A stretch of DNA of 64,000 bases, taken from NCBI GenBank assembly GCA_017435465.1, contig JAFSEX010000005.1, positions 6,793 to 70,792 on the forward strand, written 5' to 3'. The stretch is from Bacilli bacterium. Its GTDB lineage: Bacteria; Bacillota_I; Bacilli_A; RF39; UBA660. Positions 7,388 to 63,481 of the stretch are shown here, piece after piece. Both the position numbers and the translations under genes were made by a program. The notes below the pieces were generated by a model that was not told the DNA's origin, searched no databases, and saw only the letters and a list, made by a program, of their open reading frames with translations. How positions within the stretch are numbered: position 1 is the stretch's first letter; each line of letters starts with the position of its first letter.

Positions 7388-8084
7388 AAAAAGTATATTA
7401 GAAAATAAAATCAAATTAATTGTTATTTTGACTTTAATAGTTGGTGGAATATCAATACTATTTTTAAATACACAATCCAATTCAAAGGTAGAAATTAAAA
7501 AATTTAAAAATAAAGAATATGTATTTACTACTAATCAAAAAAATAATGACATAAAATGTCCTTATATTAATATTGATAGTGATGAAATAGACAAAATTAA
7601 CAATGATATAATATATAAATATTATTCAGTTATACAAAATAAATATAGTAAAATGGATTATGAATATTCAATAAATAATAATCATTTATCTTTAATAATA
7701 AAAATTATAAACATGAAATCTGAGGACGATTATGAAAAAAAAGAATATATTTCATATAATGTAAATATAAGCAGTAAAAAAGAGATAACTAATGATGAAT
7801 TATTAAAAGCACATAATTTATCACAAAGTGAAATAAATAATAATATATACGAAAAATTAAAAAATGCATATGAAATAGAATCAAATGAAATGTATATAGA
7901 ACCACAAGAATGTGATTTTAATTGTTACTTAAAAATTCATGAAGTAGATGATTTAGAAACAAAATTAGTTTATTTTATTGATAAAGAAAATAAAGTTATA
8001 GGATATTTAAATCATGTATTAGAAACAGTGTATTTTGACAAAAATGATTATAAAGAATTTACATCACAATTTTTATTAAATTAG
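7380..8084 (+). CDS. hypothetical membrane-anchored protein
   Basis: Overlaps the upstream stop (ATGA). Has an N-terminal TM helix. No motif recognised. Confidence 0.4.
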   Translation: MIKKSILENKIKLIVILTLIVGGISILFLNTQSNSKVEIKKFKNKEYVFTTNQKNNDIKCPYINIDSDEIDKINNDIIYKYYSVIQNKYSKMDYEYSINNNHLSLIIKIINMKSEDDYEKKEYISYNVNISSKKEITNDELLKAHNLSQSEINNNIYEKLKNAYEIESNEMYIEPQECDFNCYLKIHEVDDLETKLVYFIDKENKVIGYLNHVLETVYFDKNDYKEFTSQFLLN

Positions 8085-9242: not shown

Positions 9243-9372
9243 AAAAAACTCTTGAAAGAGTTTTAATTTATCTTTATTTATACTCCTTCATCGGTATTAG
9301 CAGAACCACCTTACATATGCAGGTTGGTATGAGTTCATAGAGCTAATTCTCTCCCTCATTCTTGATAAAAGT
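9243..9372 (-). promoter_or_regulatory. SAM-I (S-box) riboswitch with intrinsic terminator, leader of metK
   Basis: The minus strand reads CTTTTATCAAGAATGAGGGAGAGAATTAGCTCTATGAACTCATACCAACC...GGTGGTTCTGCTAATACCGATGAAGGAG. A hairpin AAAACTCTTTCAAGAGTTTT plus T-run follows. This matches the S-box consensus as remembered. Confidence 0.75.
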
Positions 9373-13230: not shown

Positions 13231-14571
13231 ATGAAATTATCAAAATATTTTCATTATATTGAATTAGAAAACAACATATATGCAGTTTATAATTCATTAA
13301 TAATGGATGTAGTTTTTGTAAATAAATCTAAACTTGATGAAATAATAAATATTTCAGTTGATGACGAAGAAAAAGTAAAATTACAAAATTTAGGAATATA
13401 TATTACAAGTAAAGAACAGGATGAAGAAGCATTACAAATTGTAAAAAATAGATATGATGAAGTTACAGGTAAAGTTAATATTATGTATTTAATACTTTCA
13501 TCTGCATGTAATCTAGCATGTAAATATTGTTTTATAGAAAATTGTACATTTAATAATAAAGTAGAAATAAATATGAATTTAGATACAGTAAAAAATGCTA
13601 TTACTAAATATGATAATTATTTAAAAAGAGAAAATTTAGAAGAAGGATTAATCATTTTTTATGGTGGAGAACCACTTGTAAATTGGGATGCAATAGTTAC
13701 TGCTATTGAACTTGCAAAAGAATTAAAATCTCCTATAAAATTTTCAATGGTTACTAATGCAACTTTACTTACTGCTGAAAAGATTAAGTATTTAACAGAA
13801 AATAATGTTGAGATAGGAATTTCAATAGATGGACCTAAAGCATTAAACGATAAAAATAGAATTTATAGAACAAACGAAAAAAGTGTATATGATGAAGTAA
13901 TATCAAAATTCCCATTATTAAAAGCAGAAGAATGTAAATTTGGATTATCGATAACAGTTTCTGAAGATTTTTTGGATCAACAAGATGAAGTTTTAGATTG
14001 GTTAGAGCATCTTGGCGTAAGTAGCATATTTTATAATTTATATCACTATACTTGTTATGATGAAAATTGGGAAGAATATTACAATAGAGCAAGTAAATTT
14101 TTAATGAAATCATATGAAAAATTAGCAAGTCATAATATATATGATGGTAGATTAAATAGAAAAATAGATAGTATAATTGATAGTGAATTTAAATTTGCAG
14201 ATTGCGGAGCAATTGGCGGAAATCAACTTGCAATAAAACCTAGTGGTGATGTATGTATTTGTCATGGATATTTAAAAACTGATAAATATGTAATAGGTAA
14301 TGTTAATAAACAATCTATTGATGAATTAATGGATACTGATGAAATAAGATTCTGGAAAAGAAGAAGTACAATATATAATGATGAATGTTTAAATTGTGAA
14401 GCTATTTATACATGTGGAGGCGGATGTGCAATTCAAGCCGAAGCATTGTTTGGAAATAGAAATGAAATAGACAAACCATTTTGTATTCACACTAAAAGTG
14501 CATTAAGGTGGATACTTCAAAGAAGTTATAATAAAATGGTAGAAAATGAAAAGGAGGTGATAAAATGTTAG
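13231..14571 (+). CDS. radical SAM/SPASM-domain peptide maturase with N-terminal RRE-like region
   Basis: CNLACKYC CX3CX2C cluster. C-terminal Cys-rich SPASM region (CGAIGG...CICHG...CLNCEAIYTCGGGCAIQA...FCIH). About 85 aa lie before the rSAM core. Confidence 0.8.
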   Translation: MKLSKYFHYIELENNIYAVYNSLIMDVVFVNKSKLDEIINISVDDEEKVKLQNLGIYITSKEQDEEALQIVKNRYDEVTGKVNIMYLILSSACNLACKYCFIENCTFNNKVEINMNLDTVKNAITKYDNYLKRENLEEGLIIFYGGEPLVNWDAIVTAIELAKELKSPIKFSMVTNATLLTAEKIKYLTENNVEIGISIDGPKALNDKNRIYRTNEKSVYDEVISKFPLLKAEECKFGLSITVSEDFLDQQDEVLDWLEHLGVSSIFYNLYHYTCYDENWEEYYNRASKFLMKSYEKLASHNIYDGRLNRKIDSIIDSEFKFADCGAIGGNQLAIKPSGDVCICHGYLKTDKYVIGNVNKQSIDELMDTDEIRFWKRRSTIYNDECLNCEAIYTCGGGCAIQAEALFGNRNEIDKPFCIHTKSALRWILQRSYNKMVENEKEVIKC

Positions 14572-27389: not shown

Positions 27390-29180
27390 TTATTCATAAA
27401 TTATTTTAGTTTTTGGTATAAGCATAAGGTTATCAATGATGTTTCCTTTGCTTATTAGAGGACAATTTATAATGCCGTCATAATAGAAATGTTCACTTAC
27501 TAGAGAACAAAATGCTTCTTGTTCTAGAGTAGAATATTCATTATTTTGATATTTATTTAATGAATATATGTAGTAATTTTTCTCATATTTAGGTATGTCA
27601 TCCACACTTATTTGTTCATAATACTTAATTCCCATATTATCATTTTGTAAAATATCATTAAGATATTCTAAATATTCTTTATTACTTTTTGATATAAATT
27701 CATCATAAAACTTAATATTTTTGATTTCAATATTATAATTTTTTTCTCTAGTTATTTCTAAACTTGATATAAGTTTTTGTATTAAATCTTTCTTTGTTTG
27801 TCTTTTTAGACTATCCCACACAAAAGAAAATCCTAATTTATTGAACATAATATTTTCATTATTTTGATAATCACAGTCTATTTTTTTAACTAATTCTACT
27901 ACATATTCTTTAAAATCATCATCTGGATTTAATAATTCTTTTTTCTTATTTAACTTTTGAATTTCTTTTTTTATGGTTTCATTTTTAGTATTAATGGTAT
28001 CAACAGGTAATGTTGATGAGATATATAAATCAACTAATCGTTTTTCTTGTAGTTTTAATTTTTCTATTGCTTTATCAATATCTTTAATATCTTTTGATTT
28101 AGTAGAGTTACATACTATAATTTCATTATCCATATCATACATATATCTAGTTAATTCATTTAATATACGACCTAATCTTTTTTCAATTTTATCAGAACTA
28201 TAATGTAAACCTTTTGATTTACAGTTAGGATTTTTACAAGTTAAATGATAATATTCAATTCTATTTTTATTTCTATCATATTTATAAGATATAGTAGAAG
28301 ATAGTATTTTAGAACATTCTGGGCACTTTACAATAGAAGTAAATAAATGTATATGTTCTCCATAGTTTGGATGTTTATTCTTCTCTAAATTAGTTCTAGT
28401 AACATTCCAAGTATTCATATCTATAATTGGTTCACAATAGTTTTCAACTCTTAAAATATCTTCATCTTTTCTTCTATATTTACCATATTCAAATATCCCA
28501 ATATAAATAGAATTAGTTAATATTTTATAAACTCTATCTGCTCTCCATTTTCCTTCTTTTAGATATGCATTTGTTTCGTTTAGAATACTCGCAATACCTC
28601 TTGTAGAATGCCTATCTTTACACAAATTAAATATTTCTTTAACTACTTGTGCCTCAATAGGTTCTATCTCTAAATGACCTGTTTCTTTATTTCTAACATA
28701 TCCATAGGGTGATTTAGCAGGGTGTATTTTAGATAATGCCATTTCTTCCATAGCACGTTTAGTTCTTGCACCTATTTCTTTTCTTTCTCTTTGTCCAAAT
28801 ACTAAATTCATTCCAAATATCATTTCACCATTAGCAGTTCCTACATCATAAGGTTCTAATATCAGTTCAATTTTTACATCGTGTTTTTCACAATAATTAA
28901 GTAACCAAAATCCATCGTAATTATTTCTAGTTAGTCTATCTACTTTTATTGCGACTAACTTATCAATCTTTTTTGCCTTAATATCTTTTAATAATCTTTG
29001 CATTTCTGGTCTCATTAAATCTTTTCCAGAATAACCTGCATCATTATAAACATCAATAATAGAATATTCATTCTTTTCACAATATTCTTTAATCATACGA
29101 AGTTGTGAATCAATAGAGTATCCATTATCTCTTTGATCGTCTGTACTTACTCTTACATATATTGCGCATCTTTTACTCAC
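27390..29180 (-). CDS. large serine recombinase
   Basis: N-terminal resolvase catalytic domain CAIYVRVSTDDQ...GYSIDSQ, a recombinase domain, and a zinc-ribbon CPEC...C..C region. GTG start lies 9 nt after SD AAGGAG. Confidence 0.85.
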   Translation of the reverse strand: MSKRCAIYVRVSTDDQRDNGYSIDSQLRMIKEYCEKNEYSIIDVYNDAGYSGKDLMRPEMQRLLKDIKAKKIDKLVAIKVDRLTRNNYDGFWLLNYCEKHDVKIELILEPYDVGTANGEMIFGMNLVFGQRERKEIGARTKRAMEEMALSKIHPAKSPYGYVRNKETGHLEIEPIEAQVVKEIFNLCKDRHSTRGIASILNETNAYLKEGKWRADRVYKILTNSIYIGIFEYGKYRRKDEDILRVENYCEPIIDMNTWNVTRTNLEKNKHPNYGEHIHLFTSIVKCPECSKILSSTISYKYDRNKNRIEYYHLTCKNPNCKSKGLHYSSDKIEKRLGRILNELTRYMYDMDNEIIVCNSTKSKDIKDIDKAIEKLKLQEKRLVDLYISSTLPVDTINTKNETIKKEIQKLNKKKELLNPDDDFKEYVVELVKKIDCDYQNNENIMFNKLGFSFVWDSLKRQTKKDLIQKLISSLEITREKNYNIEIKNIKFYDEFISKSNKEYLEYLNDILQNDNMGIKYYEQISVDDIPKYEKNYYIYSLNKYQNNEYSTLEQEAFCSLVSEHFYYDGIINCPLISKGNIIDNLMLIPKTKIIYE

Positions 29181-33116: not shown

Positions 33117-35114
<1,998 letters not shown>

Positions 35115-35717: not shown

Positions 35718-35745
35718 AAAAATTAGTACCTAAATAGTACCTAAA
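35718..35745 (+). repeat. 28-bp direct repeat copy 2, overlapping the integrase stop codon; probable att core
   Basis: Identical to 15776-15803. Confidence 0.9.
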
Positions 35746-36851
35746 TTTTCTAATACATCTATTATAACTTTTTCAGTTTCAGGAAATAAATGGGCATATG
35801 TATTTAAGACAACTTCAATAGTATCTCCCAATCTTTCGGCTATTAAATTAGTTGGAACTTTGTTGCTAATTAGCAAACTAGCATGACTATGTCTAAATTC
35901 ATGAATTGTTATTCTTTTGTCATTTAAACCAGCCAATTCAAAATAATTATCACAATGTCTTGAAATAGTAGTGTAGGGTAGATATTCTAATCCACCAAAT
36001 ACAAACCAACTATTATCAAAGTTACATATTTTAGATTGTTCATTATAATGCTGTTTTAATATATTTACTAATTGGGTAGGCATACTTATTATACGATTCT
36101 TTTTGTTTTTAGTATTTGTTTCCTTATGACCTTTTTTAAATGTTCTAAAACTAATTTGTTTTATTATCTTAACTTTATTTGTATTAAAGTCAATGTCAGT
36201 CCATTTTAATGCTCCAGCTTCACCTTTACGAACTCCCATATAATACAAAAAGTGAAAATATGCTTTATCTGTTAAGTCTTCAATAACACTCTGAAAAATA
36301 TTGAACTCTTCTGGAGTAATATATCTTACTTTGTTTGTATCATCAATTATTTCTTCTGTGTTTTTAGCAAAGTTATTAATATTCTTCATAATATTAGTTT
36401 TAATTATTTTATTGTCTTTTGCAAATCTAAAAATTGAAGATAATACATTAAATATTGCTTGTTTATAAGATGTTTCATATTCTTTTTCATTTATATCTAT
36501 TTTTGATTTCCAATTTTCAATATCTGATTCAGTTATTTTTGTTATTTTCTTATCACCTAAATATTCCTTAATGTGTGCTCTATATCTATCATTGTGAGTA
36601 TAAATTGTTGATTCTTTTACTAATGTATAATTTGATTTATATAATTCAAATACTTCATCAAGTGTTAAATCATTAGAAATTTGCTCCCCGGCACATGATA
36701 GAAATATTCTTTCTTGTTCTTCTGCCTCTTTTTTAGTCATGTATTTTTTTGATTTTTTTACCTTTCTAACATTATCTATATTAGTGTAGTAAACTTTAAA
36801 ATACCATGTTCTTCCATCTTTTGTTTTTTCTTTTGCTTTATATACTGGCAT
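35730..36851 (-). CDS. int: tyrosine-type phage integrase
   Basis: 373 aa. N-terminal SAM-like domain, then a C-terminal catalytic pattern: GVRKGEAGAL, HEFRHSHASLL, and LNTYAHL with the terminal Tyr. Confidence 0.85.
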   Translation of the reverse strand: MPVYKAKEKTKDGRTWYFKVYYTNIDNVRKVKKSKKYMTKKEAEEQERIFLSCAGEQISNDLTLDEVFELYKSNYTLVKESTIYTHNDRYRAHIKEYLGDKKITKITESDIENWKSKIDINEKEYETSYKQAIFNVLSSIFRFAKDNKIIKTNIMKNINNFAKNTEEIIDDTNKVRYITPEEFNIFQSVIEDLTDKAYFHFLYYMGVRKGEAGALKWTDIDFNTNKVKIIKQISFRTFKKGHKETNTKNKKNRIISMPTQLVNILKQHYNEQSKICNFDNSWFVFGGLEYLPYTTISRHCDNYFELAGLNDKRITIHEFRHSHASLLISNKVPTNLIAERLGDTIEVVLNTYAHLFPETEKVIIDVLENLGTI

Positions 36852-42605: not shown

Positions 42606-42983
42606 ATGAAAATAAATAGTGAAGAATTATATAAGTTCATTAATGAATTAGGAACTAATGAAAAAGTTAGATTCAAAGTTTATTACGATGATAATTATGT
42701 TACAGAAGTATTATGGAATGGAGATAGCTTTGAATGGGAAACAGGAACATTTACATCAGAAGCATTCTTTAACCCGTTATATGATTTTGAAGAAATAAAA
42801 GAAGAAAAAGAAATAGAAAAAATAATTTTAAATAGTGACGGTGATATTGTCTACTATGAAAATGGAGAAAAACATAGATTTACAACTAATAAACAAACAA
42901 AATATCTTACACATAAAATCAATGAAATAATAGATGAAATAAATAGATTAAAGAAAGGAAATGATGACTTATCAATAAGGTAA
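42606..42983 (+). CDS. hypothetical phage protein
   Basis: TAAATG junction with the upstream ORF. Intact ORF. Confidence 0.35.
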   Translation: MKINSEELYKFINELGTNEKVRFKVYYDDNYVTEVLWNGDSFEWETGTFTSEAFFNPLYDFEEIKEEKEIEKIILNSDGDIVYYENGEKHRFTTNKQTKYLTHKINEIIDEINRLKKGNDDLSIR

Positions 42984-43363
42984 TACTGATTGGGAGATTA
43001 ACCCAAAATCCAGCAAGATATTCAAAAAAAGATGGAACAACATATTGCAAATTTTCAGTAGCAATAAATAGGGGAGAAGATAAAGCAGATTTTATAAATT
43101 GTACATGCTTTAGTAAGCAAGCAGAAAACATAATTAAATACCTTTCTAAAGGTAGTTTAGTAGCAGTAGAAGGAAGATTACAAACAAGTAAATATTATGA
43201 TGACAGAAGTCAAAAAAACATAACTACAACAGATGTAATAGTAGATAATGTAAAATTCCTAGATAGAAAAAAAGAACAAACAAATGAATTTGAAAATTTA
43301 AGTACAAATACATTTTATACAAATGATATAGAGATATCAGAAGAAGATTTACCATTTGAATAG
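42971..43363 (+). CDS. ssb: single-stranded DNA-binding protein lacking ATG/GTG/TTG start; absent from the ORF track
   Basis: The frame reads (I)NKVILIGRLTQNPARYSKKDGTTYCKFSVAINRGEDKADFINCTCFSKQAENIIKYLSKGSLVAVEGRLQTSKYYD...EEDLPFE. That is an OB-fold SSB with the acidic DLPF tail. ATC occupies the expected ATG position, 10 nt after AGGAA. Confidence 0.75.
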   Translation: MNKVILIGRLTQNPARYSKKDGTTYCKFSVAINRGEDKADFINCTCFSKQAENIIKYLSKGSLVAVEGRLQTSKYYDDRSQKNITTTDVIVDNVKFLDRKKEQTNEFENLSTNTFYTNDIEISEEDLPFE

Positions 43364-51598: not shown

Positions 51599-52051
51599 AT
51601 GAAAAAATGTAAGTATTGCATGAGTGAAATCGATGCAAAGGCAAAAATTTGTCCACATTGTGCAAAAAAACAAAACAAGATTCCTGTTGTAGGTAGAATA
51701 GTTATAGCTGTAATAGTTTTCTTTGTGTTAATTGGTTTATTTTCTGATAGTAATTCTGAAAATAACATACCAGAAGAAGAAAAATTCACTATATCTGATG
51801 TGAAAGCTTATTCCGATGATAGTGGTTTTGCGTATTACATAGAAGGTATAGTAAAAAACAACACAGATAAAGATTATAATTATATACAAATTACCTATAA
51901 TGTGTATGACAAAGATGACAATAATTTAGGAACATGTTTGGACAATAATAGCAATTTAAAATCAGGCGAAACATGGAAATTCAAAACAATGTGTAGTGGT
52001 AGTCCAGATGAAATTGTAAGATATGAATTAGATGAAATAACAAGTTACTAA
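51599..52051 (+). CDS. zinc-ribbon membrane protein with FxLYD-type extracellular domain
   Basis: CKYC...CPHC zinc ribbon, a TM helix, and ITYNVYDKDDNNLG (FxLYD-like). A terminator lies at 52052-52075. Confidence 0.55.
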   Translation: MKKCKYCMSEIDAKAKICPHCAKKQNKIPVVGRIVIAVIVFFVLIGLFSDSNSENNIPEEEKFTISDVKAYSDDSGFAYYIEGIVKNNTDKDYNYIQITYNVYDKDDNNLGTCLDNNSNLKSGETWKFKTMCSGSPDEIVRYELDEITSY

Positions 52052-52078
52052 GAGATGCGAAAGCATCTTTTTTCATAT

Positions 52079-52154
52079 CGCGAGATAGAGTAGAGGTAAA
52101 CTCGTCAGTGTCGTTAGCTGAAGAACGTGGGTTCGAATCCCGCTCTCGCAACCA
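52079..52154 (+). tRNA. phage-encoded tRNA, anticodon CGU (nominally Thr) with initiator-tRNA-like acceptor and D-stem features
   Basis: Hand-folded 76-nt cloverleaf: CGCGAGA-TA-GAGT-AGAGGTAA-ACTC-G-TCAGT-GTCGTTA-GCTGA-AGAAC-GTGGG-TTCGAAT-CCCGC-TCTCGCA-A-CCA. Confidence 0.75.
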
Positions 52155-52319
52155 ATATTGATAATTAATAATAAGGAGGGAACAACATAATGGAAAAATT
52201 AAAAGTTCTAGAAGAAAATGGAAAGAAAATAATCCAATTATTTGGCATTAAATATGAATTAATATTTGATGATAAAAAAATAAGCAAAGAAAGTAAAGAT
52301 AAAAAGTAGGTAGATAATT

Positions 52320-52730
52320 ATGGCAAATGAAGTTGGAAGACCAAGAAAATATAGTAATGTAGAAGAATTACAGTATATGATTGATGAATATTTTGAATGT
52401 TGTAATCAAAATCATAGACCATATACAATAACAGGATTAGCACTATGGTTGGATATGGATAGAAAAGGATTACTAAGATATGAAAAGGACTATGAAGATG
52501 AATTTTGCCACACAATAAAAAGAGCAAAAGAAAGAGTCCAAGAATATGTTGAATGTTGTTTGTTTAAAAAAGGTATAACAGCTGGAGTTATTTTTAATTT
52601 AAAAAACAACTTTGGCTGGGAAGATGCAGAAGTTGTAGAACATAAAGGCGCACAGCCAATAATAGATGTTTCTAAACTTACTGATGAACAAATACAAGAA
52701 ATGCTAAATAAATATGACAAAACAGAATGA
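52320..52730 (+). CDS. terS: terminase small subunit
   Basis: 136 aa with a GRPRKYSNVEELQ HTH-like N terminus. It lies immediately upstream of the large terminase and overlaps it. Confidence 0.7.
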   Translation: MANEVGRPRKYSNVEELQYMIDEYFECCNQNHRPYTITGLALWLDMDRKGLLRYEKDYEDEFCHTIKRAKERVQEYVECCLFKKGITAGVIFNLKNNFGWEDAEVVEHKGAQPIIDVSKLTDEQIQEMLNKYDKTE

Positions 52731-54078
52731 TTTAATATTAGCATTAAAATGTGAACAAGCTAGACGTTCTTTTTGGTGTTACTGTAAATTAAAAGCGCCA
52801 GATTTTTACAAGGAAAGTAGAACATATCTAAAACAGTTTTGTAATAATTTACAAGACTTTTTTTATGGAGATAAAAAGGTATTAGTAATTAATATGCCTC
52901 CAAGACATGGTAAGTCTAGAACATTAACATTGTTCGTTCAATGGATTTTAGGAAAATATTCAACACACAAAGTGATGACAGGTTCTTATAATGAAACATT
53001 ATCAACTACTTTTGCAAAACAAGTAAGAGATAGTATTCAAGAAGAGGATGGAATATTTAGTAAAGTTTTTCCTGATATTGAGATAAAATATGGGGAAGCA
53101 AGTATGTCTAAATGGGCATTAAAAGGTAGTGAAGAATCTAATTATCTAGCTACAAGTCCAACAGGTATAGCTACAGGTTTTGGATGTAACTTAATGATAA
53201 TAGATGATTTAATTAAGAATGCTTTAGAAGCGTATACTCAAACTGTTTTAGAAAAACATATTGAATGGTTTGATAATACTATGCTACAACGTACAGAAAA
53301 AGGTTTTAAAATAATAATAGTTATGACAAGATGGGCAGAAAATGATTTAGCGGGTTACATTTTGAGAGAATATGCAAATGATGTTATTCATGTTAATTAT
53401 AAAGCTGTACAGGAAGATGGTTCAATGTTGTGCGATGAGGTATTAAGCAAGGAAGATTATGAATTTAAAACACAAAAGATGAATGTGGATATAATATCTG
53501 CAAACTATCAACAAGAACCTATCGATGTAAAGGGTAGATTGTATCAAAATTTACAAGAATACGAAAGCTTACCCTCATTATATGAAATTAAATCTAAGTG
53601 TGATGTTGCAGATAGTGGGGATGACTATTTATCTAATATTGTTTATGCAGAAGATATAAGAAATAAAAAAGCATATATATTAGATGTTTTATTTACAAAT
53701 AAAGGTCAAGAAGAAACTGAAAATTTGCTAGCTGAACAATTAAAAAAGTGGAAAGTACAAAGAGCTTGGTTTGAGTCAAATAATGGTGGGAAAGCATTTG
53801 CAAGACTTGTTGAAAACAAAACAAGAAAATTAGGAAACATTACTACAGTTTTTTCATGGAACGCAAATACTAGCAATAAGGAAGCAAGAATATTAAGTAA
53901 TTCAACAATAGTTGAAAATAATATATATTTTCCATTAAATTGGAAAAATACATTTAAAGATTTTGCAGTTAATGTATTAGGATATTTAAGAGCAGGAAAA
54001 AACAAACATGATGATGGGCCTGATAATTTAACAATGATAGCAGAAGATTTAGATAAGGGTGAATTAGAATTCATTTAA
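52714..54078 (+). CDS. terL: terminase large subunit
   Basis: 454 aa with Walker A-like MPPRHGKS, Walker B LMIIDD, and C-terminal nuclease Asp residues (DVADSGDD...HDDGPD). Confidence 0.85.
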   Translation: MTKQNDLILALKCEQARRSFWCYCKLKAPDFYKESRTYLKQFCNNLQDFFYGDKKVLVINMPPRHGKSRTLTLFVQWILGKYSTHKVMTGSYNETLSTTFAKQVRDSIQEEDGIFSKVFPDIEIKYGEASMSKWALKGSEESNYLATSPTGIATGFGCNLMIIDDLIKNALEAYTQTVLEKHIEWFDNTMLQRTEKGFKIIIVMTRWAENDLAGYILREYANDVIHVNYKAVQEDGSMLCDEVLSKEDYEFKTQKMNVDIISANYQQEPIDVKGRLYQNLQEYESLPSLYEIKSKCDVADSGDDYLSNIVYAEDIRNKKAYILDVLFTNKGQEETENLLAEQLKKWKVQRAWFESNNGGKAFARLVENKTRKLGNITTVFSWNANTSNKEARILSNSTIVENNIYFPLNWKNTFKDFAVNVLGYLRAGKNKHDDGPDNLTMIAEDLDKGELEFI

Positions 54079-54089
54079 GAGGTGATAAA

Positions 54090-55412
54090 ACGAATTATTA
54101 TGTTGATGAAAATTTTGAACTTACTGATAAAATAATTGATGAAGTAATAAGAAAATATGAATCATTTAAAAGAAAATATAAAAAACTAGAAGATTATTAT
54201 GATGGAAAACACACTATATTAAAACGCAAAAAATCAGATGACAAATCTAATAATAAAGCAATTATAAATCATGCAAAATATATAACAGATATGGCAACTG
54301 GATTTTTTATATCAGAACCTGTTGACTATCAAGTTGAAAAAGCAATAAATTTGGAACCAGTATTAGATGTATATAAAATCCAAACGATAAATAAACTAGA
54401 CACTAGAATAGCAAAAAATTGTAGCAAAAAAGGAAGAACTTTTGAATATATATACTCAGATAAAAATGCTAATCCAAAGTCATGTGTTTTGGATAATGTA
54501 ATTATATTTAGAGATAATACAGTAGAACATAACAAATTATGCGCTATATCTTATGATTATGTATATGAAAATAACAAATTAGTACGTAACAAATATTCAT
54601 TAAAGAAAATAATGCCTGATGAGACTATTAATGGTACATTTTACAATGGAGTATTTAATGAAACAGATAGTGATTATACTTTTTTTGGCGAAGTTCCAAT
54701 TATTGAATATATAAACACAGAAGAAAAACAAGGTGATTATGAACCTGTAATAAGTTTGATTGATGCTTATAATTTGTTACAAAGTGATAGATTAAATGAT
54801 AAGGAACAGCTAGTTGATGCAATTCTTTGTGTTTATGGCATGAGTATGACTCCTGAACAAAAAGAATTACTTAAAGAAAAAAGAATGCTTGTAAATATTC
54901 CTCCTGATGCGAAAATAGAATATTTAACAAAAGCTCTTAATGAAGCAGATAATGATGTTCTAAGAGGAGTAATAGAACAAGACATACACAAAATTAGTAT
55001 GGTTCCAAATATGAGTGATGTCAATTTTGCAGGTAATTCTAGTGGTGTAGCTATTAAATTTAAATTATTAGCATTTTTATATTTAATAAAAAATAAAGAA
55101 AGATGTTTTGAAGAAGGATTATTAGATAGATTTAGAATGTATAATTATTTTTTAAATATTAAATCAAATATGCCAATAATACCTACACATGAAATAGATA
55201 TAGTATTTAAACATTCTTTACCAAGCAATGACTTAGAAATTGCACAAACAATCTCATATTTAGACGGTAAAGTTGATAATGAAACATTAATAAGTCAATT
55301 GTCGTTTATAAAAGACGCTAGTGAAATAACAGAAATCGTAAAAAAAGAAAAAGAATCGAATACGATGAAATACTTAGGCCAATTTGGTGATATAAATAAT
55401 CAAGATGAATAG
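54090..55412 (+). CDS. portal protein (SPP1 gp6-like), start reassigned to ACG 54090
   Basis: The frame is open from 54063. The region upstream of ATG 54291 encodes portal-like ...LEDYYDGKHTILKRKK...NNKAIINHAKYITDMATGFF. No ATG/GTG/TTG is in frame before 54291. AAGAGGTGATAAA precedes ACG. Confidence 0.75.
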   Translation, partial: TNYYVDENFELTDKIIDEVIRKYESFKRKYKKLEDYYDGKHTILKRKKSDDKSNNKAIINHAKYITDMATGFFISEPVDYQVEKAINLEPVLDVYKIQTINKLDTRIAKNCSKKGRTFEYIYSDKNANPKSCVLDNVIIFRDNTVEHNKLCAISYDYVYENNKLVRNKYSLKKIMPDETINGTFYNGVFNETDSDYTFFGEVPIIEYINTEEKQGDYEPVISLIDAYNLLQSDRLNDKEQLVDAILCVYGMSMTPEQKELLKEKRMLVNIPPDAKIEYLTKALNEADNDVLRGVIEQDIHKISMVPNMSDVNFAGNSSGVAIKFKLLAFLYLIKNKERCFEEGLLDRFRMYNYFLNIKSNMPIIPTHEIDIVFKHSLPSNDLEIAQTISYLDGKVDNETLISQLSFIKDASEITEIVKKEKESNTMKYLGQFGDINNQDE

Positions 55413-57972: not shown

Positions 57973-58857
57973 ATGTATTTAAAAGATGAATTACAAGGTT
58001 TTGTTCCAACAGAACAAGCAAGTGAAATTATGAAAGATGTTGCTAGAGGTTCTAGCGTATTAAAATTATCAAAAGTTAGTGCTATGGAAAGTGATACAAA
58101 AAAAATTCCAGTTTTAGCAGAAGGTCCAGGTGCATACTGGGTTGGAGAAGGAGAAAGAATCCAAACTAGCAAAGCTACATGGATATTCCCAGAATTAAAA
58201 GCAAAAAAATTAGCAGTTATTATACCTGTAACAAAAGAAAAATTAGACGATACAACTATAAATGTATTCGAAGAATTAAAAGAACCAATTGCGGAAACAT
58301 TTTATAAAGCATTTGATTCTGCTGCAATATTTGGTACATCAAGTCCATTTGCAAAGAATATAATGAGTTCAATTGAAACAGCTAACAACAAAATTGAAAT
58401 TGAAACTAATGGAACTGGACATTTAGATTTAGACGTGTCTGATGCTATGGCTTTAGTAGAAGATAGTGGTTTAGATGTTAATGGATTCGTGGCTAAAAAT
58501 GGTATTAAAAATTCATTAAGAAAATTAAGAGATGGTAATGGTAATCAATTATATGTTGATGGTGTAAATAGTAAAGAATTTTACGCACAACCAATTGAAT
58601 TTTCAAGAAATGGAGCATGGGATAATACAAAAGCTGAAATTATTGGTGGAGATTTTGATAAATCATTAGTAGGTATTAGAGATGGAATAGAATATGAAAT
58701 CTTAAAAGAAGCAACATTACAAGGTACTGTTGATGCTGATGACAAACCAATTTCATTAGCTGAACAAGATATGATTGCAATTAAAGCTACAATGAGAATT
58801 GCTTATTTACCAATTAAAGATGAAGCATTCTGTGCTGTTGTTCCTAAAACTGTTTAA
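57973..58857 (+). CDS. major capsid protein
   Basis: 294 aa. Assigned from its position after the scaffold, its strong SD TAGGAGAG, and the downstream terminator after 59058. Confidence 0.65.
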   Translation: MYLKDELQGFVPTEQASEIMKDVARGSSVLKLSKVSAMESDTKKIPVLAEGPGAYWVGEGERIQTSKATWIFPELKAKKLAVIIPVTKEKLDDTTINVFEELKEPIAETFYKAFDSAAIFGTSSPFAKNIMSSIETANNKIEIETNGTGHLDLDVSDAMALVEDSGLDVNGFVAKNGIKNSLRKLRDGNGNQLYVDGVNSKEFYAQPIEFSRNGAWDNTKAEIIGGDFDKSLVGIRDGIEYEILKEATLQGTVDADDKPISLAEQDMIAIKATMRIAYLPIKDEAFCAVVPKTV

Positions 58858-61024: not shown

Positions 61025-61357
61025 ATGAAAAAAATGGATTTTAAATATAGAGCAAAAGATATAGAAAAAATAGAAAAAGCGAAAAATGAACAAATTGGTA
61101 AAATAGCTGTGGATGGAACAATTTCATCAATAGCACTATTAATTAAATATGGAACTGATTGTTCATTAGATAGAGCATATGATATTATCGATGAAGAAAG
61201 AGAAAAAGGGAAGGACACTGAAGAGTTAGTACTAGAAATTGTTGAGGCATTAACAAATCAGGGTTTTTTGACAAAAGAACTGAATATAGAGAAAATGAAG
61301 AAAGCGAAAGCATCACAAATGGAAATGGCGAATATTCAGTTAGAAAAAATGATTTAA
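61025..61357 (+). CDS. tail assembly chaperone (G-like, short form)
   Basis: 110 aa and acidic, immediately upstream of the tape measure. It ends just after an A6 slippery run. Confidence 0.65.
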   Translation: MKKMDFKYRAKDIEKIEKAKNEQIGKIAVDGTISSIALLIKYGTDCSLDRAYDIIDEEREKGKDTEELVLEIVEALTNQGFLTKELNIEKMKKAKASQMEMANIQLEKMI

Positions 61358-61689
61358 AGTTTTATGAAATATGGGAAGAACAGGAAAAAAATGCATTAAA
61401 AATAGGATTAGATTTAGATAGCTACTGGAATTTAAATCCTAAACAATTTGAAAAACACATATTAAATTATGAAGAGAAACAACTAGAAAAAGCAAATTAT
61501 GATAGAGTTCTTATTTATAATTTAGGATATTATATATTACTTGCTTTTAATAAGCCAAGTGATTATCCAGATAAACCAGAATTATTGAAATTACATAATG
61601 ATAAACCTATGAATGATGATGAAATGGAAAGAATTATAGAACGTAACACTTATGCTTTAGGAGGTGAAGTTGTGAACGACAATAGATGA
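61025..61689 (+). CDS. tail assembly chaperone, long form made by -1 programmed frameshift at G-AAA-AAA-T (61343-61350)
   Basis: The -1 frame is open from before the slippery run to TGA 61687-61689 (~110 codons) and has no start codon of its own. This is the canonical G/GT arrangement. Confidence 0.6.
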
Positions 61690-63481
61690 GGTTAAAGTAA
61701 AAGTAACTGCGACACATGATGAATTAAATAAGGAATTAAATAATGCAAGTAAATTAGTGGACAATTTCGAAAATAAAACAAAGTATAAAGGGTCAAAAAT
61801 TTTAAATGTTCTAAGAAATGCTTTTAGTGGAAATACTACCAAATTAGATGTTGATAGTACAGAATATGATAATCTAGCTACTAAATTAGATATAATTAAT
61901 TCAAAAATTGAAAGTCAAAAACAAAAATTAGCTTCATTAAGAGAGAGATTATCTGGTGTTCTTGATATACCAATTAATGAAAGTAAAATAGCTAAAATAA
62001 ATGATGATATAAGAAAAACAGAAACATCAATAAAGAGTTTGACTTTACAAAGTAATAAAACAGCTCAATCAATGTGGAAATTAGAAGATAAAATGAAAAA
62101 TGTGTCAAATCAGAGCAATAATATTACTTCTAATGGTATAAATAGTATAAACAAATCAGTTAATTCAGGAATCTCAAAAATAGTTAAATATGGATTAGCT
62201 CTTTTTAGTATAAGAAGTATATATACTTTGTTAAGTAGAGCAAGTTCACAATATATGCAATATGATACAGAAAATGCTAACAAAATAAAAAGTGCATGGG
62301 TAGGCTTAGGTGCTACACTTCAACCTATAATTACTTATATTGGAAATGCAATACTTAAATTAGTTAGTTATATAAATCTTTTTGTTAAAGCATTAACAGG
62401 TACAGATATGATTGCAAATGCTAATACAAAATATTTAAATCAACAAGCTAAAGCTACGAAAAATTTAACTAAAGCAAATCAGGGATTAAGCTCGATGGAT
62501 GAAATAACTAATTTATCGGATTCTAACGCTGATAGTGGTTCAGCAAATGAAGATTATAATCCTTTTTCTGCATTTGAAAATGTTGAATTAGACGATGGAT
62601 GGGCAAAAGCTTTTACCTCTGCTGGAGAAAAATTGAGACCGGTTTGGGAATGGCTTTGTGAATGGATTCCAAAACTTGGGAAATGGATATTAGAAAATTG
62701 GGAAGATGTAGTAAGTACTTTTCTTTTAATTAAAATGGTATTTGATATTTCAACTGGGAATTGGATTGGGCTTGTTATGGATTTTGTACTATATTTAATC
62801 GTAAATTTACCTAGATTGTGGGATTCCGTTAAAGGAATTTGGGATGGATTAGTTCAGTTTGGTTCATGGCTTATTGGTGGCCTTTGTAATATGGTTTCAA
62901 GTGCTGTAGATTGGTTTGTTGATAAGTGGCAAATAGCTAAAGACTTTATTGTTGAATTTATTTCTAATATTCCAGACATGATATCAAAAATGTGGAAAAA
63001 AGTTGTAACCACATTTAAGAATATTGGGCTTAAGATTGGGGAAGTTGTAGGAAAAGCATTCACTTCTACTGTTAATGCAGTATTAACAGTAATGGAAAAT
63101 ATATTAAATACACCAATAAAAGCAATAAATTCATTAATAAAAGTTATAAATACTCTTCCTGGTGTTGAAATAAATAAAATCAAAACATTTAAACTTCCAA
63201 GATTAGATACTGGAACAAATAGAGTTCCTAGAGATATGACAGCAGTAATACATAAAGATGAAGCAGTAGTACCAAAAAAATATAACCCAGCTGTCAATAA
63301 TCAAAATAATTCTTCTATAACTGATGAATTATTAATTGAATTAATATCTAAAGTTGAAGACTTATCACAAAGACCAGTTGACCTTAAAATAGATGGTAAA
63401 GAATTTGCTAGAACAACTTATTCATACTATAAAAATGAAGAAAAAAGACTTGGAAGTTCAACAGCAATAAGGAGAGTGTAA
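61676..63481 (+). CDS. tail tape measure protein (start uncertain: ACG 61676 or GTG 61757)
   Basis: About 600 aa with coiled-coil N-terminal segments, hydrophobic segments in the C-terminal half, and a position after the chaperones. The frame is open from 61676. GTG 61757 has no SD. Confidence 0.75.
   Translation, partial: TTIDEVKVKVTATHDELNKELNNASKLVDNFENKTKYKGSKILNVLRNAFSGNTTKLDVDSTEYDNLATKLDIINSKIESQKQKLASLRERLSGVLDIPINESKIAKINDDIRKTETSIKSLTLQSNKTAQSMWKLEDKMKNVSNQSNNITSNGINSINKSVNSGISKIVKYGLALFSIRSIYTLLSRASSQYMQYDTENANKIKSAWVGLGATLQPIITYIGNAILKLVSYINLFVKALTGTDMIANANTKYLNQQAKATKNLTKANQGLSSMDEITNLSDSNADSGSANEDYNPFSAFENVELDDGWAKAFTSAGEKLRPVWEWLCEWIPKLGKWILENWEDVVSTFLLIKMVFDISTGNWIGLVMDFVLYLIVNLPRLWDSVKGIWDGLVQFGSWLIGGLCNMVSSAVDWFVDKWQIAKDFIVEFISNIPDMISKMWKKVVTTFKNIGLKIGEVVGKAFTSTVNAVLTVMENILNTPIKAINSLIKVINTLPGVEINKIKTFKLPRLDTGTNRVPRDMTAVIHKDEAVVPKKYNPAVNNQNNSSITDELLIELISKVEDLSQRPVDLKIDGKEFARTTYSYYKNEEKRLGSSTAIRRV

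Follow-up and report, generated by a model that had tools for sequence, protein, structure and literature searches.

The stretch of DNA considered here (hereafter the window) comprises 64,000 nucleotides of contig JAFSEX010000005.1, from a bacterium of the Bacilli, and has a G+C content of approximately 25%. It carries a prophage that runs from an integrase gene to beyond the end of the window (Table 1). Between the early region of this prophage and the genes for the small terminase subunit (terS, 52320), the large terminase subunit (terL, 52714) and the portal protein lies a tRNA gene that joins the acceptor stem and D stem of a bacterial initiator tRNA to the anticodon CGU. The initial annotation of this sequence had drawn attention to the tRNA and to a portal gene that appears to begin at ACG, and had proposed that the one serves the other. 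It is found here that initiation at ACG by this tRNA is very probable on comparative grounds, and that the phenomenon reaches further than the initial annotation supposed, extending to a number of late genes per phage, to a probable second ACG start in the window and to one or more other classes of anticodon.

The tRNA is the only one called by ARAGORN in the window, under the name tRNA-Thr(cgt), and it matches the Rfam tRNA model with 52.4 bits (E = 2e-8), the pair 1:72 being marked as non-standard; the cloverleaf that had been folded by hand is thus a real tRNA. The acceptor stem (CGCGAGA/UCUCGCA) has a C1xA72 mismatch followed by G2:C71, C3:G70 and G4:C69, with A73 and an encoded CCA, whilst the body has U8, A14, a GG in the D loop, the D stem GAGU/ACUC with A11:U24, and the T loop UUCGAAU. 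The initiator identity set described in the initial annotation is therefore present in the sequence, including the 1:72 mismatch, the formylase determinants and A11:U24. The anticodon arm is another matter. Of the three consecutive G:C pairs of an initiator (29:41, 30:40 and 31:39) only G30:C40 is kept, as had been noted, in a stem UCAGU/GCUGA that contains A29:U41 and U31.G39, and the loop GUCGUUA (G32, U33, C34 G35 U36, U37, A38) holds CGU in place of CAU. G32 and U37 are very unusual. The CGU anticodon is that of a tRNA-Thr, and G35 and U36 are determinants for threonyl-tRNA synthetase (ThrRS). By the identity rules of E. coli ThrRS and the general conservation of tRNAs, an elongator tRNA-Thr would be expected to have a paired 1:72, C2:G71, Y11:R24 and a purine (t6A) at 37; C1xA72, G2:C71, A11:U24 and U37 are found instead. 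What remains is an initiator-type body with a non-CAU anticodon, which co-occurs with a start codon complementary to that anticodon and positioned by a Shine-Dalgarno (SD) sequence, namely ACG 54090 of the portal gene.

The portal reading frame opens at 54063, and AAGAGGTGATAAA directly precedes the ACG at 54090-54092. The first in-frame ATG, GTG or TTG is ATG 54291, 67 codons after the ACG, which bears out the earlier observation that the frame is open over this distance; gene callers cut the portal to 373 aa, beginning at ATG 54291. The site with which the ACG had been compared, AAAGGAGGTGATAAA-ATG near 14551-14567, does exist. Among 5.8 billion proteins searched, the sole identical match was the truncated 373-aa call, the other relatives being full length and at most 57% identical. 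The N-termini of these homologues (MYTLPKDTKIT...) align with T-N-YYVDENFELT of the window, so that the homologous Met lies within one codon of the ACG, and a start within one codon of this position was found in 15 of 15 aligned homologues and in 80 of 80 IMG/VR loci with related portals. These 80 loci use ATG (GTG in one or two) behind GGAGGTG plus 5 nt, reading ...aaggaggtgtaaga ATG, and the spacing equals that of GAGGTG plus 5 nt plus ACG in the window. ACG makes up 0.35% of the trinucleotides of the prophage, a rarity that makes its presence at the sole SD-defined position unlikely to be due to chance. Sequencing error at the ACG was ruled out, because an independently assembled metagenome copy (L002), with 99.7% identity overall, matches the tRNA and ACG region without a difference; the contigs that carry copies of the prophage are metagenome scaffolds. 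Among GenBank phages no close relative was found, only terminase and portal fragments with 64-74% identity. Taken together, the starts of the homologues and the identical independent sample leave 54090 or an adjacent position as the place where the portal has to begin, and its start codon must, from the sequence, be ACG.

Searching IMG/VR for tRNAs that join a CGU anticodon to an acceptor of the initiator type recovered L003 (44% GC, loop GUCGUUG), L004 and L005 (54% GC, AUCGUCG) and L024 (28% GC), the last with an anticodon arm identical to that of the window; a scan with the anticodon arm alone found L003 and L024 only. In L003, an SD-positioned ACG follows the opening of five open reading frames (ORFs) at a distance of zero to five codons (terS, portal, major capsid and two minor head proteins), and a coding-strand census of SD-positioned codons near ORF openings gave ATG eight times, ACG five times and any other codon at most twice. 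Pfam and PHROG profiles cover the N-terminal extensions of these proteins, residue 8 of the portal falling at profile position 7, and in terS the first canonical codon would remove the helix-turn-helix. L024 has the order tRNA-terS-terL-portal of the window, with a non-homologous terL and portal; its portal opens exactly at ACG, 77 codons ahead of the first canonical codon, and the terL position is also ACG. The portals of L003 and L024 share 21% identity over 129 residues. The ACG starts of both phages were not imposed by the search pattern.

The portal protein of L024 was used as the query for a comparison in which contigs were fetched without any tRNA pattern. Many of its relatives are full length (462-469 aa), and a closer set is truncated by gene callers (356-445 aa); the truncated portals P0128, P0129 and P0142 (L302-L307), picked for their truncation alone, were compared with the full-length portals P0134, P0135 and P0136 (L308-L312). 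Immediately ahead of terS, each of L302-L307 has a tRNA with C1xA72, G2:C71, C3:G70, A73, A11:U24 and CCA, the loop GUCGUUA and a stem with A29:U41, G30:C40 and U31.G39, together with five or six SD-positioned ACG starts per lineage. L308-L312 have no tRNA of any kind, and no ACG start candidate was found in them. When the start codons of orthologous genes were tabulated for the tRNA-bearing L302, L304 and L306 and the tRNA-less L308, L310 and L311, the portal, the major-capsid-like protein and a tail protein were seen to start at ACG in all three of the former and at ATG in the latter. The tape measure likewise starts at ACG in all three, against ATG in L308 and TTG in L310 and L311. For terL the codon is ACG in L302 and ATG in L304 and L306, and for a 138-aa protein ACG in L302 and L304 and ATG in L306, the tRNA-less phages having ATG in both genes. 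The flanks are often near-identical (...aaggagtgatacaa ATG GAAAAAGTAGTTAAAGAT versus ...aaaggagtgatgaa ACG GAAAAAGTAGTTAAAGAT), and flips of individual genes between ACG and ATG occur within tRNA-bearing lineages and never in tRNA-less ones. In all, six divergent tRNA-bearing lineages (the window, L003, L024, L302/303, L304/305 and L306/307) start the portal at an SD-positioned ACG, and approximately 85 tRNA-less relatives (80 window-related loci and five closely related to the L302 group) start it at ATG, or at GTG in one or two. Such a tRNA is absent from all 80 of the IMG/VR loci with window-related portals. The survey of relatives that the initial annotation had called for thus finds the tRNA and the portal ACG together. 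A separate phage tRNA, tRNA-Ile(UAU) with the acceptor AGACAAG/AGGCAAG, recurs in related phages (L026 7607-7683, L029, L038 and L306 7403-7478), and in L306 it adjoins the CGU tRNA.

A second anticodon class shows the same relationship with a different codon. Initiator-like tRNAs with the anticodon CCU were found in L008 (a Bacilli metagenome-assembled genome, 4698-4771), L019, L021 and 36 IMG/VR contigs (for example L229, L235, L260, L231 and L288), mostly with the loop UUCCUUA or CUCCUUA (U37). Contigs of this class begin terL, portal, minor head, head-tail adaptor, major capsid and tape-measure genes at an SD-positioned AGG; residue 3 of the L008 capsid falls at PHROG profile position 6, and residue 2 of the L260 capsid at position 4, in a gene whose first canonical codon comes 77 codons further on. 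A codon was counted as a candidate start when it lay in an ORF of 100 codons or more, had an SD at a distance of 3-11 nt, fell within 10 codons of the ORF opening and was followed by the first ATG, GTG or TTG no sooner than 5 codons on. By this rule the CGU loci (the window prophage, L003 and L024; 43.8 kb) gave 8 ACG and 0 AGG, the CCU loci from IMG/VR (248 kb) 1 ACG and 45 AGG, the CCU loci from genomes and metagenomes (15 kb) 0 ACG and 3 AGG, and the control portal loci (758 kb) 0 ACG and 1 AGG, counts that are not independent events, many CCU contigs and control loci being closely related. In these sequences the start codon covaries unambiguously with the anticodon, ACG with CGU and AGG with CCU. 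This covariation and the co-occurrence described above support the original proposal of an initiator-derived tRNA reading ACG alongside a late gene that starts there. The base before the start codon is also biased: A stands at -1 in 23 of the 25 distinct ACG starts compared with 40 of the 68 ATG starts of the same loci (p = 0.002), and in 16 of 22 AGG starts against 24 of 55 (p = 0.025), and G follows the start codon in 17 of 25 ACG starts against 20 of 68 ATG starts, these counts including homologous genes and so not being independent. The bias at -1 suggests that U37 may pair with the A before the start codon.

Further anticodons were encountered in the same scans. GAC, in the loop UUGACUU (U37) and with an initiator-like acceptor and D stem, occurs in at least 23 viral contigs of 36-43% GC, a count made among the first 120 matches (L110-L228; for example L120 13957-14029); a search of these contigs for GTC or GTT starts gave no clear signal, and their hosts probably lack SD guidance. 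GUU (loop UUGUUCA), again with an initiator-like acceptor and D stem, was found in two contigs (L129 and L152), in which AAC starts were not shown. CUG-anticodon tRNAs with CGCG...CGCAA ends, the loop CUCUGAA, A37 and U11:A24 are present in L234, L248, L257, L262, L274, L278, L284, L291 and L298, contigs that gave no CAG-start signal. Versions with a CAU anticodon and U37 exist as well (UUCAUUC and CUCAUUA). Pattern scans of genome contigs and metagenomes returned mostly canonical initiator genes, with three G:C pairs and the loop CUCNUAA, in which one anticodon base is changed to give CGU, CCU or CUU. These lie on chromosomal or metagenome contigs (L007 289-363, from Lysinibacillus contaminans, L013, L018, L020, L023 and others), and the L007 copy stands beside three normal tRNA-Met genes. 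Such single-change initiators were rejected as members of the same system: no convincing matching starts were found in their contigs, their three G:C pairs are intact, and they are probably pseudogenes or errors.

The CGU tRNAs form a structurally constrained family. An alignment of seven members shows compensatory changes in 12 of the 21 cloverleaf pairs, with 94% pairing compared with approximately 40% when the partners are slid. The pair 1:72 is unpaired in all seven; G2:C71 and C3:G70 are invariant, including in the pattern-independent L302, L304 and L306; 4:69 is A:U in L302 and L304; and 11:24 is A:U in six members and U:A in L024. The loop GUCGUUA is identical in the window, L024, L302, L304 and L306. 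Among 20 distinct sequences of the CGU and CCU classes, features that were not imposed by any search pattern include G30:C40 (20 of 20), U31.G39 (16 of 20), a pyrimidine at 37 (16 of 20, against 9 of 53 other tRNAs of the same loci) and a purine 11:pyrimidine 24 pair (10 of 20). By these sequence measures the tRNA is real and under structural constraint.

Within the window, the tape-measure gene is the probable second user of ACG. Its frame has GTG 61757 as the first canonical codon, which lacks an SD, and the N-termini and lengths of homologues fit a start at 61676, the PHROG and homologue evidence being weak. Tape measures begin at ACG in L302, L304 and L306 and at AGG in eight CCU-class contigs; on account of this recurrence and the fit of the homologues, the tape measure of the window probably starts at ACG 61676, with a confidence below that for the portal because 11 nt is a long SD spacing. 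The remaining late genes, including those of L106 downstream of the window, have canonical starts, the portal and tape measure being the exceptions, and late genes are read in code 11 without internal stops, which leaves no sign of recoding by a suppressor tRNA. As a sense codon ACG is very rare, at 0.55 per 1000 codons in the host and 1.5 in the prophage (only 9 in approximately 6000 codons), and L003 also has an ordinary tRNA-Thr(UGU). This rarity makes codon supplementation a poor motive for the tRNA and would make ACG a clean private signal. Just ahead of the tape measure, the tail assembly chaperone (61025-61357) and an overlapping startless frame (61246-61689, +) have the usual -1 frameshift G/GT layout.

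Table 1. Coordinates of the prophage features discussed in the text (window positions unless a locus is named)
Feature	Position	Strand	Basis or remark
Prophage	integrase (35730-36851) to past 64000		ORF list
Integrase	35730-36851	-	left end of the prophage
ORF	51599-52051	+	stop directly precedes the stem-loop at 52052
Stem-loop GAGATGC-GAAA-GCATCTT, then T-run	52052-52073	+	3′ end 5 nt ahead of the tRNA 5′ end
Hairpin/T-run/(T)ATAT elements	window 52052-52078; L302 ~7855-7896; L304 ~7890-7929; L005 7230-7315		
tRNA, 76 nt, anticodon CGU, initiator-type acceptor and D stem	52079-52154	+	ARAGORN, Rfam
terS, small terminase subunit, first late gene after the tRNA	52320-52730	+	ATG start; ORF list; Pfam GP3_package on the identical gene in L001
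terL, large terminase subunit	52714-54078	+	ATG start; stop TAA 54076-54078, 11 nt before the portal ACG
Shine-Dalgarno AAGAGGTGAT for portal	54077-54086	+	GGTG + 5 nt + start codon; geometry as in ATG homologues
ACG, proposed portal start codon	54090-54092	+	homologue N-termini, open frame, independent sample
Portal gene, SPP1-type, phrog_64, 440 codons from ACG	54090-55412	+	profiles, homologues
Shine-Dalgarno AGGAGGTGA before tape-measure gene	61659-61667	+	sequence reading
Tape-measure gene (probable start)	61676-63481	+	frame opens exactly at ACG 61676-61678

The tRNA stands at the head of the late block, behind a hairpin and T-run (Table 1). The stem-loop folds at -12.6 kcal/mol with its flanks, and a similar hairpin, T-run and (T)ATAT precede the related tRNAs of L302, L304, L024, L003 and L005, ending 4-6 nt before the 5′ end of the tRNA in most lineages. 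A consensus promoter and terminator scan around the tRNA was uninformative and did not call the stem-loop as a terminator; it may be a terminator, a processing signal or promoter context. In L005 the hairpin before the tRNA matches the Rfam gut-2 RNA (RF02990), and the stretch 3′ of the tRNA matches the GP20-b motif (RF03003). Directly 3′ of the tRNA, L302 (7973-8070), L304 (8007-8100) and L024 (4510-4609, -) have a perfect hairpin of 18-25 bp, the internal loop of which holds CACCUCCUUU, the 3′ end of 16S rRNA (a mimic of the anti-SD), just ahead of the terS SD; this hairpin is absent from the window and from L306, where a small ORF occupies its place. Elsewhere in the prophage, an SSB-like ORF (42968-43363, +; ..INKVILIGRL.. 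and a C-terminal DLPF) has neither an in-frame ATG, GTG or TTG nor an ACG. It has ATC 42971 where homologues have ATG, with two ATGs just upstream in another frame, and may reflect a non-canonical start, a frameshift or decay. An independent copy of the prophage (L002 ~9160 / L107 ~5228; window 58610-58705) lacks approximately 96 bp of the major capsid gene, which is called there at 219 aa compared with 294; this copy is either decaying or affected by an assembly artefact. Outside the prophage integrase, two large serine recombinase genes (27390-29180, -, and 33117-35108, -) lie just beyond it and a SAM (S-box) riboswitch is found at 9285-9371 (-), a neighbourhood that suggests further mobile elements beside the prophage.

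These observations can be assembled into a mechanism in which the prophage would encode its own initiator tRNA, with an anticodon that would pair with ACG and not with AUG. The acceptor features (C1xA72, G2:C71, C3:G70 and A73) and A11:U24 would mark the tRNA for formylation and bar EF-Tu and peptidyl-tRNA hydrolase; C1xA72 with G2:C71 and C3:G70 constitutes the determinants for the formyltransferase (PMC5389676). Ribosomes positioned by the SD on the portal mRNA, and probably on the tape-measure mRNA, would then take this tRNA into the P site, where it would decode ACG, possibly with U37 forming a fourth base pair to the A just before the codon. If the tRNA is used in this way, the late proteins concerned would depend on it and not on host tRNA-fMet. 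It is probably charged with threonine by ThrRS through G35 and U36, as initiators with a mutated anticodon accept the amino acid to which the new triplet corresponds, and by the same analogy it may be formylated, giving a Thr or formyl-Thr N-terminus. The N-terminal peptides of late proteins would read X-EKVVKDFLK, X-AKYGNQYVDEQY and X-DGYLKIK, where X is Thr, formyl-Thr (fThr) or Met. The position of the tRNA behind the hairpin and T-run means that its synthesis could be tied to late transcription. Candidate purposes are the timing, delay or threshold of late proteins, insulation or silence in the lysogen, and control of dosage; the tRNA may also isolate its phage genetically from satellites and from phages that lack it, or free it from reliance on host tRNA-fMet.

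Several points weigh against initiation at ACG by this tRNA. The support for it is comparative throughout, and in the window only two genes use ACG, the tape measure at an SD spacing of 11 nt. G32 and U37 are highly unusual in an anticodon loop, and two of the three initiator G:C pairs are gone, replaced by A29:U41 and U31.G39; in E. coli, loss of these pairs impairs P-site selection (PMC5389676), although initiators with an au/GC/gu anticodon stem occur naturally in mycoplasmas and alpha-proteobacteria (PMC5389676). L003, L004, L005, L024 and the CCU class were found with patterns that impose CGCG...CGCAA, so that their acceptor conservation is not independent evidence, and no persuasive ACG start was seen in L004 and L005 (CGU with C37), of which 4-10 kb could be examined. 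The acceptor identity of E. coli ThrRS consists of G1:C72 and C2:G71; it is absent here, and charging may hence be inefficient or be carried out by another enzyme. The SSB-like gene, with neither a canonical start nor ACG, could hint at decay of the prophage. Decay is part of a rival explanation, in which the tRNA is an odd elongator tRNA-Thr supplementing rare ACG and the ACG of the portal arose from ATG by a point mutation that has nothing to do with it. The name given by ARAGORN fits this explanation, as do the startless SSB-like gene, the capsid-gene deletion in the sister copy and the rarity of ACG in the host, for which a CGU tRNA could be limiting. It is nevertheless highly improbable, as it is opposed by the C1xA72 mismatch in the whole seven-member family, by U37 in place of a near-universal purine and A11:U24 as an initiator trait, and by the nine ACG sense codons of the prophage. 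It also leaves aside the occurrence of ACG at the exact start in six lineages, in up to six genes per phage and never in the approximately 85 tRNA-less relatives, and the repetition of the pattern with AGG in the CCU class.

ACG might instead be a weak near-cognate start for host tRNA-fMet that limits the levels of portal and tape measure, the tRNA being a replacement or decoy for an anticodon nuclease. Both proteins are low-copy, the loop is aberrant (G32 and U37), and phage tRNAs with altered anticodon loops that escape nucleases have been reported (PMC10264068). This explanation is nonetheless very unlikely to hold: it does not account for ACG starts occurring only alongside the tRNA or for AGG starts accompanying a CCU anticodon, and an initiator-type acceptor would be pointless in a decoy or an elongator. 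The major capsid, moreover, begins at ACG or AGG in several phages (L003, L302-L306, L008 and L260), and with hundreds of copies needed per virion a trickle of near-cognate initiation would seem incompatible with these starts. It is very unlikely that the portal starts elsewhere, whether at ATT 54069 or 54063, at ATG 54291 as a truncated protein, or by frameshifting from ATG 54100 or 54106. ATT is a known rare bacterial start, the two in-frame ATT codons lie within the end of terL with a weak AAGGGTGA upstream of 54069, and ATG 54291 is the choice of gene callers; however, the latter drops 67 conserved portal-profile residues. The ATT codons are weak formal alternatives, the strong SD being set for 54090 with the spacing of the ATG homologues and the ATG-to-ACG swap recurring in lineages with no ATT to fall back on. 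ATG 54100, TTG 54103 and ATG 54106 are out of the portal frame and meet a stop after 11 codons, no slippery heptamer is available from the frame of ATG 54100, and homology (MY..xxD..T) begins at 54093, so that frameshifting was rejected. C-to-U editing of the mRNA could in principle convert ACG into AUG, as happens at some start codons in plant organelles, but we know of no such mRNA editing in phages or Firmicutes, and AGG starts and matched anticodons would be left unexplained; we give this explanation almost no credence.

Initiation at ACG by the tRNA therefore stands as the preferred reading, and a broader form of it appears reasonably likely, if less secure: that low-GC Gram-positive phages, temperate and lytic, run a private initiation channel of non-CAU initiator tRNAs, pairing CGU with ACG and CCU with AGG, and possibly also using GAC, GUU and CUG. 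Such a channel would start packaging, head and tail proteins, probably with a non-Met first residue (Thr or Arg), and a pyrimidine at 37 may add a fourth pair with A(-1). To our knowledge, every described initiator tRNA carries CAU, with this tRNA also reading non-AUG starts by way of mismatches. Full-text searches of a collection that leaves out most subscription journals found no natural non-CAU initiator tRNA in phages and no phage start-codon reassignment, and a prior description is possible. If borne out, the channel would supply the first natural examples, from any system, of initiator tRNAs not reading AUG, and would be a new mode of genetic-code alteration, acting at initiation rather than at stop codons. 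Late-gene translation would be conditional on a phage RNA, serving timing, lysogen insulation, isolation or independence from host tRNA-fMet, and so gain an added layer of control. The channel would also explain the systematic truncation by gene callers of portal, capsid, terminase and tape-measure genes, an annotation error in public databases. It would offer naturally evolved orthogonal pairs of initiator and start codon for synthetic biology (G30:C40 only, U31.G39, Y37 and A at -1), and it makes testable how far the three-G:C rule, A37 and methionine are needed for initiation.

Comparison with known systems helps to place the phage tRNA. With bacterial tRNA-fMet it shares C1xA72, G2:C71, C3:G70, G4:C69, A73, A11:U24, G30:C40, CCA, its overall size and, as far as comparison suggests, use at SD-positioned starts; it differs in having CGU in place of CAU, one of the three G:C pairs, the loop GUCGUUA rather than CUCAUAA, and probably non-Met charging. 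Without a CAU anticodon and the three G:C pairs it falls outside canonical tRNA-fMet, and because 1:72 is unpaired and A11:U24 and U37 are present it falls outside elongator tRNA-Thr. Schulman and RajBhandary reportedly worked with an amber initiator and with GAC and GAA initiator mutants. Like the phage tRNA, engineered initiators have an initiator body, a non-CAU anticodon and a complementary non-AUG start behind a normal SD, initiation by the phage tRNA being deduced. They are, however, laboratory constructs that keep three G:C pairs and A37, whereas the phage tRNA is natural, tied to late genes and remodelled in its stem-loop (U31.G39 and Y37). In E. coli, i-tRNA(AAC) initiates at GUU; when an initiator is given another anticodon, that anticodon decides which amino acid is attached, formylation is incomplete and translation starts at the matching codon (bioRxiv 10.1101/2021.05.25.445580). 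The natural au/GC/gu initiators share A29:U41, G30:C40 and a wobble at 31:39 with the phage tRNA, and they show that an initiator does not need the full set of three G:C pairs to function; they keep CAU and an R:Y G31:U39, in contrast to the U31.G39 and changed anticodon of the phage tRNA (PMC5389676). Nuclease-evading phage tRNAs resemble it in being phage-encoded with an unusual anticodon loop, but they are reported to be elongators that duplicate host decoding, without initiator identity or recoded starts (PMC10264068). A conceptual parallel exists with phage suppressor tRNAs that recode stops, such as TAG to Gln in gut phages (PMC10879173; bioRxiv 10.1101/2022.01.06.475225). Those phage tRNAs reportedly give a codon another meaning, and late structural or lysis genes come to depend on them, as late genes would in the ACG system; stop recoding acts in elongation and termination at stop codons, whereas the ACG system would act in initiation at a sense codon and would need initiator identity.

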